Of a stretch of DNA of 64,000 bases, positions 2,730 to 3,178 are shown piece after piece (position 1 is the first letter of the stretch; the number at the start of each line of letters is the position of its first letter). The stretch lies in the NCBI RefSeq assembly GCF_003334815.1, contig NZ_QOWO01000011.1; one strand, given 5' to 3'. The notes under the pieces are model-generated. The model did not search any database. It was not told the DNA's origin and saw only the letters and a program-made list of their open reading frames with translations. Source of the DNA: Escherichia coli (GTDB lineage: Bacteria; Pseudomonadota; Gammaproteobacteria; Enterobacterales; Enterobacteriaceae). The position numbers were made by a program, and so were the translations under genes.

Positions 2730-2928
2730 AATTATAATAAATATTATTGTTGAGTGTTATATTATTATTCCTGTGTGATACATTGAGCAAAGACGCGTTC
2801 ATCTTCGTCAAAGATATTATTAAATGCTGGTTTTGAAAAAAGTTCATCGGATAAGATATAGTCACGAAATAAGTATCTGCTAATATTTTATGATTTCTTT
2901 TTCAGAACGTCGAACGGGATTTTCTTAT

Positions 2929-3084
2929 TTAAGATATCAGAATCTTATGATTCGGGTAAAATTCTAAATAAATCAACATGTCATTAAAATCATCATAGCC
3001 ATTAGCTATTTCGGCTAAAATAGAGACTACATGTCTTCGGTCCATCTCACTTAAGGAGTGTAGTTCCGTTGTAAGTTTTTCCAT
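2929..3084 (-). CDS. Hypothetical 51-aa ORF in the AT-rich spacer (may correspond to the small ORF annotated between yrhA and yrhB in K-12; uncertain)
   Basis: Hand-translated from the minus strand: ATG at 3082-3084 to TAA at 2929-2931, MEKLTTELHSLSEMDRRHVVSILAEIANGYDDFNDMLIYLEFYPNHKILIS; below the ORF-track length cut-off; no clear SD. Confidence 0.25.
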   Translation of the reverse strand: MEKLTTELHSLSEMDRRHVVSILAEIANGYDDFNDMLIYLEFYPNHKILIS

Positions 3085-3178
3085 AGCTTGCACTGCTAAA
3101 TTTCGAACAAGGAATTTTCTGCTGGTAATCTCTAAAAAGATGGCATGGTTTACAATGATTTTTGTTTCCTTTTGATTA

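Follow-up and report, generated by a model that had tools for sequence, protein, structure and literature searches.

The 449-bp spacer between yrhA and yrhB in a 64,000-nucleotide stretch of the Escherichia coli genome (the window) probably represents the decaying end of an Hcp-toxin locus (type VI secretion) in which the toxin/immunity cassette has been changed more than once, and yrhD, the gene named within it, is most likely non-functional. The current pair would be yhhZ, which encodes Hcp with an HNH-type nuclease, and yrhA, with leftovers of earlier occupants lying downstream. One of these would be a dead remnant at 2768-2926, whose intact relatives are predicted to give immunity to another toxin domain, unnamed and about 150 aa long, for which the carrier is Hcp in Citrobacter and Rhs in Budvicia. 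The other would be yrhB, an intact orphan immunity gene of the Imm35 family. A 252-bp segment lies between yrhA and the relic, and an open frame within it has been annotated as yrhD. Read from the toxin gene onwards, the locus order is toxin yhhZ, current immunity gene yrhA, the 252-bp yrhD segment, the dead immunity relic and the orphan yrhB.

Locus organisation and limits of the islet

The region of interest in the window has the order ugpQ-yhhA-ggt-yrhB-...-yhhZ-yhhY-yhhX. The active toxin gene of the islet is yhhZ (annotated as tssD; 3670..4848, minus strand), a 392-aa ORF encoding Hcp fused to a C-terminal HNH-type nuclease toxin. Its product matches the NCBIfam Hcp1 model (TIGR03344, E 3.8e-34) and Pfam T6SS_HCP, together with a weak HNH match at residues 322-343, and YhhZ has been grouped as a His-Me finger nuclease (PMC5714182). 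The start of yrhA (3179..3673, minus strand) overlaps the yhhZ stop (ATGA), and this intact gene of 164 aa is presumed to be the cognate immunity gene of yhhZ. YrhA matches the NCBIfam YrhA family (NF038335, E 1.7e-35) and has no match in Pfam. Homologues with about 60-66% identity are encoded 3' of toxin genes in Citrobacter, Dryocola and Leclercia, and homologues occur in other genera too. YrhA entries at 82-84% identity were considered as a second cassette and rejected, as they are frameshifted copies of the same locus. In K-12 MG1655 an IS1 element is inserted in yrhA at about 3281-3292 (window numbering), while the gene is intact in the window, which therefore does not come from MG1655. 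Methionine-to-cysteine conversion has been credited to an E. coli yhhZ-yrhAB cluster (PMC3309015), which looks like a name collision with yrhA and yrhB of B. subtilis.

The spacer runs from the yrhA stop (3179) to the yrhB start (2729), covering 2730-3178, and has a G+C content of 28-33% compared to 55% in ggt. The islet as a whole, genes and spacer together, is at 28-34% G+C against 52-55% in the flanking ggt and yhhY. Homology to a locus without the islet stops at 2745 and resumes at 5087, which defines a present/absent islet at 2746..5086 containing yhhZ, yrhA, the yrhD segment and the relic. In strain K71-77, 95 unrelated bases replace 2746-5086 and yrhB is kept beside yhhY; the whole spacer is therefore part of the yhhZ-yrhA islet and yrhB lies outside it. 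A third state is found in O157:H7, where a 303-aa DUF4225 gene and an unannotated membrane-like ORF are present and yrhB is reduced to a 5' stub. Altogether the ggt-yhhY interval was seen in the K-12 type, with yrhB only (K71-77), in the O157:H7 type, and in several Citrobacter arrangements with different Hcp-toxin tips. The interval is a small replacement hot spot for Hcp-borne toxin/immunity cassettes. Nearby, the known gene for the small RNA RyhB lies between yhhY and yhhX at 5724-5788 on the plus strand (Rfam RF00057, 83 bits).

A relic of a probable immunity gene at the 3' end of the islet

Comparison of the E. coli and C. youngae loci by tblastx showed that positions 2926-2768 match the first 53 codons of an 85-aa gene. 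This relic of the N-terminal part of an immunity-type gene (2768..2926, minus strand) is in a frame other than that of yrhD and begins just 3' of the yrhD stop. It is 47% identical to the C. youngae 85-aa protein without gaps (BLASTP E 4e-16), and by tblastn the identity is 51% with C. freundii (53 ungapped codons), 42% with C. rodentium and 32% with Budvicia. When the six-frame translation of the 64-kb window was searched with an HMM of the 85-aa family (20 members), the relic was the sole match, at 32.7 bits. Nucleotide identity to C. freundii is 0.66, 0.85 and 0.42 at codon positions 1, 2 and 3, that is, highest at the second position and lowest at the third, a pattern that is the signature of divergence under coding constraint. 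The relic also occupies a position syntenic with the intact 85-aa gene, between yrhA or an Hcp-toxin gene on one side and Imm35/ggt on the other.

The sequence at 2768-2926 is a pseudogene and not a complete translatable family member. Every E. coli haplotype has AAT where the ATG start codon should be, and the frame ends at ITQE followed by two stop codons, about 32 codons short, so that the 3' third is missing. The haplotype in the window has in addition an internal in-frame TAA, which is CAA in other haplotypes. The relic was found only through the synteny-guided comparison; an exhaustive HMMER search with the spacer translation missed the Citrobacter 85-aa family at E <= 0.001.

A reading made from the sequence only had suggested that positions 2866-3178 may hold a degenerate orphan-immunity array. 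The idea of such an array stands for the relic and for yrhB, and fails for yrhD and for a 60-aa frame, neither of which is a member; of the interval proposed, only 2866-2926 overlaps the real relic.

The 85-aa family and its candidate toxin partner

In C. youngae, the same chromosomal site carries yhhX, yhhY, a 294-aa gene, a yhhZ-type Hcp-toxin gene, yrhA, an intact 85-aa gene, a gene of 83-87 aa and ggt. The order in C. freundii is Hcp-toxin gene, 85-aa gene, Imm35 gene, 78-aa gene and ggt, which parallels the relic, yrhB and ggt of E. coli. Two of the genes in these Citrobacter loci are not present in E. coli: the 294-aa gene between yhhY and the Hcp-toxin gene, which gives a weak match to the PA3715 family (locus L025, 2671-3555; L041, 3590-4474), and the gene of 78-87 aa between the immunity genes and ggt (L041, 6600-6836).

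In C. freundii and C. rodentium the 85-aa gene begins 2 nt after the stop of the Hcp-toxin gene (417 or 402 aa), and in Budvicia aquatica it lies 2 nt after an Rhs C-terminal gene, inside an Rhs array. The last ~150 residues of the toxins are 65% identical between Hcp proteins of Citrobacter and Rhs of Budvicia (E 2e-67), whereas the N-terminal carriers differ (Hcp versus RHS core). The loci for toxin domain and 85-aa gene are L041 (C. freundii) at 5400-5996 and 6001-6258, L035 at 4977-6264 and L037 at 4791-6306. In comparative work, the standard mark of a cognate immunity gene is that it is small, conserved and directly 3' of a toxin tip found on different carriers (PMC3482391). As the tip is shared by Hcp and Rhs and the 85-aa gene is directly 3' of it, we infer an immunity role for the 85-aa family from gene context alone. 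Neither the 85-aa family nor the ~150-aa toxin domain has a match in Pfam, NCBIfam or PDB, and an AlphaFold model of the 85-aa family (pLDDT 52.7) was too uncertain to use. The toxin domain and the 85-aa gene are a candidate for an uncharacterised effector/immunity pair.

yrhB is an orphan of the Imm35 family

The sequence-only reading had also raised the possibility that yrhB is a further immunity-type gene, and a profile search bore this out. The gene (2445..2729, minus strand; 94 aa) is intact, and residues 5-83 of its product match Pfam Imm35 (PF15567) over the full model (positions 1-85 of 85) with an E value of 4.6e-23. A dN/dS of 0.23 points to purifying selection, and strains that lack yhhZ-yrhA-yrhD retain yrhB, in keeping with its place outside the present/absent islet. 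Imm35 has been tied in the literature to papain-like Tox-PL1 peptidase toxins, and Hcp-ET5 is a papain-like peptidase borne on Hcp. There is no papain-like toxin gene in the locus, which makes yrhB an orphan. An immunity function for yrhB is suggested by gene position and family; as cited in PMC10723866, the sole published activity of YrhB is chaperone-like, the protein having been described as stable and not as an immunity protein (Ahn 2012).

The 60-aa frame, at 2683..2865 on the minus strand, is present as had been described. It overlaps the yrhB start, and also the relic, in another frame. As a gene it was rejected as spurious, since 7 of 9 other haplotypes have a stop within it and RefSeq does not annotate it.

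yrhD: annotation, variation and selection

A minus-strand ORF of 51 codons (MEKLTTELHS...KILIS) was found where the sequence-only reading had placed it, with its ATG at 3084 and its TAA stop at 2929-2931 (2929..3084). It is not novel, being already annotated as yrhD: the ORF in the window is 100% identical to RefSeq yrhD (WP_001307436.1) in strain A14 and in K-12, and strain A14 is 100% identical to the window over 2.5 kb. YrhD has a Swiss-Prot/UniProt entry (P58037) and is listed with function unknown in a pan-genome paper. From the first possible start (GTG at 3093) the product would have 54 aa, and the frame is free of stops for 91 codons back to 3205-3207. A 51-codon ORF beginning with ATG arises in 12.8% of shuffles of the spacer, so that the ORF by itself is no more than chance. 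No Shine-Dalgarno motif was seen 5' of the yrhD ATG, which counts for little because yrhB lacks one too. No entry for yrhD was found in the supplements of ribosome-profiling papers, and expression of the E. coli YrhD protein is unreported in the papers that mention yrhD.

To examine selection and diversity, the window was compared with ten other E. coli haplotypes. Nucleotide diversity (pi) was 0.042 in yrhD and 0.050 and 0.048 in the flanking pieces of the spacer, and the density of variable sites in yrhA and yhhZ was about a third of that in the spacer. The dN/dS ratio was about 3 for yrhD, compared to 0.23 for yrhB, 0.24 for yrhA and 0.32 for yhhZ. Of 17 substitutions in yrhD, 16 were nonsynonymous and one was synonymous, and they include M1I (ATG to ATA), L23* and Y39*. 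Such an excess has a probability of 0.12 under neutrality and of 1.5e-4 under the level of constraint seen in the neighbouring genes.

The yrhD segment is carried by 3,803 of 5,426 complete E. coli genomes. When one mismatch was allowed, which makes the allele-class counts approximate, 2,798 of the carriers had the allele of the window, 474 had the Y39* allele and 460 had the allele combining M1I and L23*, which is found in Nissle 1917 and ATCC 11775. The frame is unbroken in about 74% of carriers; about 25% have lost the start and/or gained a stop. All 11 of the diverged genomes sampled carry a pseudogene flag on yrhD. yrhA was intact in ten of 11 sampled genomes with a broken yrhD, and the exception was SCU-482, in which yrhA and tssD are both frameshifted. 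The alignment check proposed for the 51-codon frame, conservation with a bias to synonymous change, thus came out negative; with start loss, nonsense mutations and no synonymous bias the frame is not conserved, an outcome that had been named beforehand as refuting the proposal.

No relatives of YrhD were found outside E. coli. A word-indexed search of 5.8 billion proteins returned E. coli variants only, many of them truncated. Two variants at 76-80% (P0013 and P0015) were rejected as natural alleles: they come from Logan assemblies (L005-L008) with pervasive, bisulfite-like C-to-T changes. When the concatenated spacer translation was searched exhaustively with HMMER against 1.84 billion cluster representatives, only E. 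coli self-matches and two weak repetitive ones came back, and the YrhD and spacer translations had no match in Pfam, NCBIfam or PDB. Scanning YrhD peptides in 100,044 species genomes (one per species) gave a single match, to an E. coli-contaminated contig of a metagenome-assembled genome. That contig, CABHOW010000200.1 of 'uncultured Flavihumibacter sp.', matches the yrhD region of E. coli at 100% identity and is probably E. coli contamination. As a polymorphic-toxin immunity gene, yrhD gave no homologue beyond E. coli, no family profile and no similarity to YrhA or to toxin profiles. From these data we infer that yrhD is most likely non-functional, drifting neutrally and broken in whole E. 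coli lineages.

The 252-bp segment and its invariant block

The segment that contains yrhD (2927..3178, minus strand; 252 bp) has no counterpart in the syntenic Citrobacter locus; in C. youngae only 20 nt separate the yrhA stop from the start of the 85-aa gene. It had no match in related loci by blastn or tblastx, none to profiles of toxin C-terminal domains and YrhA, and no paralogue in the 5,426 E. coli genomes by distant blastn; nor did the spacer have a paralogue on plasmids by distant blastn. Derivation of the segment from a toxin tail, from the HNH domain or from yrhA was also considered, and was rejected on negative tblastn, tblastx and profile searches. A repeat search of the spacer gave short chance matches only. 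No Rfam family scored above threshold in the spacer, and RNA folding z-scores ranged from -0.9 to +1.3.

Within the segment, the 54 nt at 3028-3081 (yrhD codons 2-19) were invariant in 10 sampled spacer haplotypes (P about 0.02), compared to 0.13 variable sites per base elsewhere in the spacer. Rare variants in this block are present in the protein database.

Alternative explanations

It is possible, though we consider it unlikely, that yrhD is a genuine young small-protein gene restricted to one lineage, working in the K-12-like majority and lost later in B2-like and other lineages. The intact frame in most carriers, a second allele with four amino-acid changes (P0008) and the invariance of the 5' 54 nt are consistent with this, as is RNA polymerase binding just upstream, detected in vitro by SELEX, in a study that assigned the promoter to yrhD (PMC3946193); the site corresponds to window positions 3266-3237. 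The 82-codon stop-free run of the yrhD frame inside the spacer is also uncommon, being reached in 4.4% of shuffles, a marginal value. Nearly all substitutions are nonsynonymous, however, and diversity equals that of the flanks; stops have arisen in two independent lineages in which neighbouring genes are intact, the ATG has no Shine-Dalgarno motif upstream, and protein and profile searches recovered neither a homologue nor a family. K-12-like genomes are nearly identical throughout the 1.3-kb region, and their likeness in yrhD is therefore no sign of constraint specific to this gene. A very unlikely reading is that yrhD arose recently as an E. coli-specific gene, or that the 3028-3081 block is a functional RNA or DNA element, in either case formed from inter-cassette debris and kept only in K-12-like lineages.

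The yrhD frame might instead be what erosion has left of the 3' end of a toxin gene, since displaced, that used to lie 5' of the 85-aa immunity gene, which would make the spacer one old module of toxin tail and immunity gene. The yrhD stop (TAA, 2929-2931) stands to the first codon of the relic as the toxin stop stands to the intact immunity start in C. freundii, C. rodentium and Budvicia, and the frame runs for 91 codons without a stop and lacks a plausible start signal. What makes this improbable is that in none of the frames did tblastn, profile or DNA comparisons detect a resemblance to the toxin domain encoded just before the intact immunity gene, although the adjoining relic, presumably of the same age, is still 47-51% identical at the protein level. 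We regard it as quite unlikely that the spacer is mainly regulatory, an AT-rich stretch bound by H-NS and holding yrhB promoters, with its open frames incidental. Promoter-like sites do occur at 2760..2731 and 2913..2885 (minus strand), no terminator-like site follows yrhA, and published K-12 data place H-NS binding, RNA polymerase binding and 'promoter islands' at yhhZ/yrhA. Promoter-like sites are not enriched, however (14 versus 12.2 +/- 3.2 in shuffles), yrhB is expressed from different upstream DNA in strains without the islet, and the spacer is more diverse than the adjacent genes. A regulatory role does not exclude the explanation of the spacer as a relic, and the two are compatible.

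Proposed cassette turnover at the ggt-yhhY site

Under the preferred reading, a decaying tail left by repeated cassette change, Hcp-toxin genes at the ggt-yhhY site would swap their C-terminal toxin domain together with the immunity gene, and each swap would leave the prior immunity gene downstream. C. youngae may represent a stage in which the displaced 85-aa gene is still intact, and E. coli a later stage in which both the start and the 3' end of that gene are gone. yrhB would be an older survivor, probably kept because an orphan immunity gene still protects against neighbours. The order of the cassette replacement events is deduced from these arrangements. An immunity fossil and an orphan Imm35 gene would thus be the traces of successive Hcp-borne cassettes at this site.

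That yrhD, a named K-12 gene, is probably not a gene is useful to know when annotations are cleaned up and small proteins listed. The comparison also exposes the uncharacterised ~150-aa toxin domain and its 85-aa partner, which Hcp carriers of Citrobacter and Rhs carriers of Budvicia have in common. The findings in the spacer are otherwise an ordinary case of cassette swapping and leave the understanding of polymorphic toxin loci unchanged.

Comparison with known systems

The closest parallels are the orphan arrays of rhs-CT/rhsI and cdiA-CT/cdiI and the cassette-displacement model proposed for them (Zhang et al. 2012, PMC3482391). As in those modules, a toxin gene with a variable tip comes first, its immunity gene second and additional, partly degraded immunity genes after that, all on the same strand, and the toxin tips on one N-terminal carrier differ between related genomes. 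The E. coli locus differs in that the carrier is Hcp and not Rhs or CdiA, in that no leftover toxin fragment was recognised there, and in that its array is very short, with one relic and one intact orphan.

In Imm35/Tox-PL1 systems the immunity gene has a papain-like toxin partner; yrhB covers the whole of the Pfam Imm35 model, as a family member should, but sits in a locus that has no such partner. yrhD resembles the dubious short ORFs of horizontally acquired AT-rich DNA in being restricted to one species, without a family, neutral and interrupted in several lineages. It is unlike them in having a gene name, the UniProt entry and a frame longer than most shuffles give. Hcp-ET1/ETi1, as summarised in PMC6099711 (Ma et al. 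2017), consists of Hcp with an extended HNH-DNase toxin and an immunity protein. By that description, which is the basis of the likeness rather than sequence, yhhZ is comparable, since it encodes Hcp with a C-terminal HNH-type domain and is followed by a small gene in the immunity position; our findings in E. coli concern the DNA 3' of such a pair.
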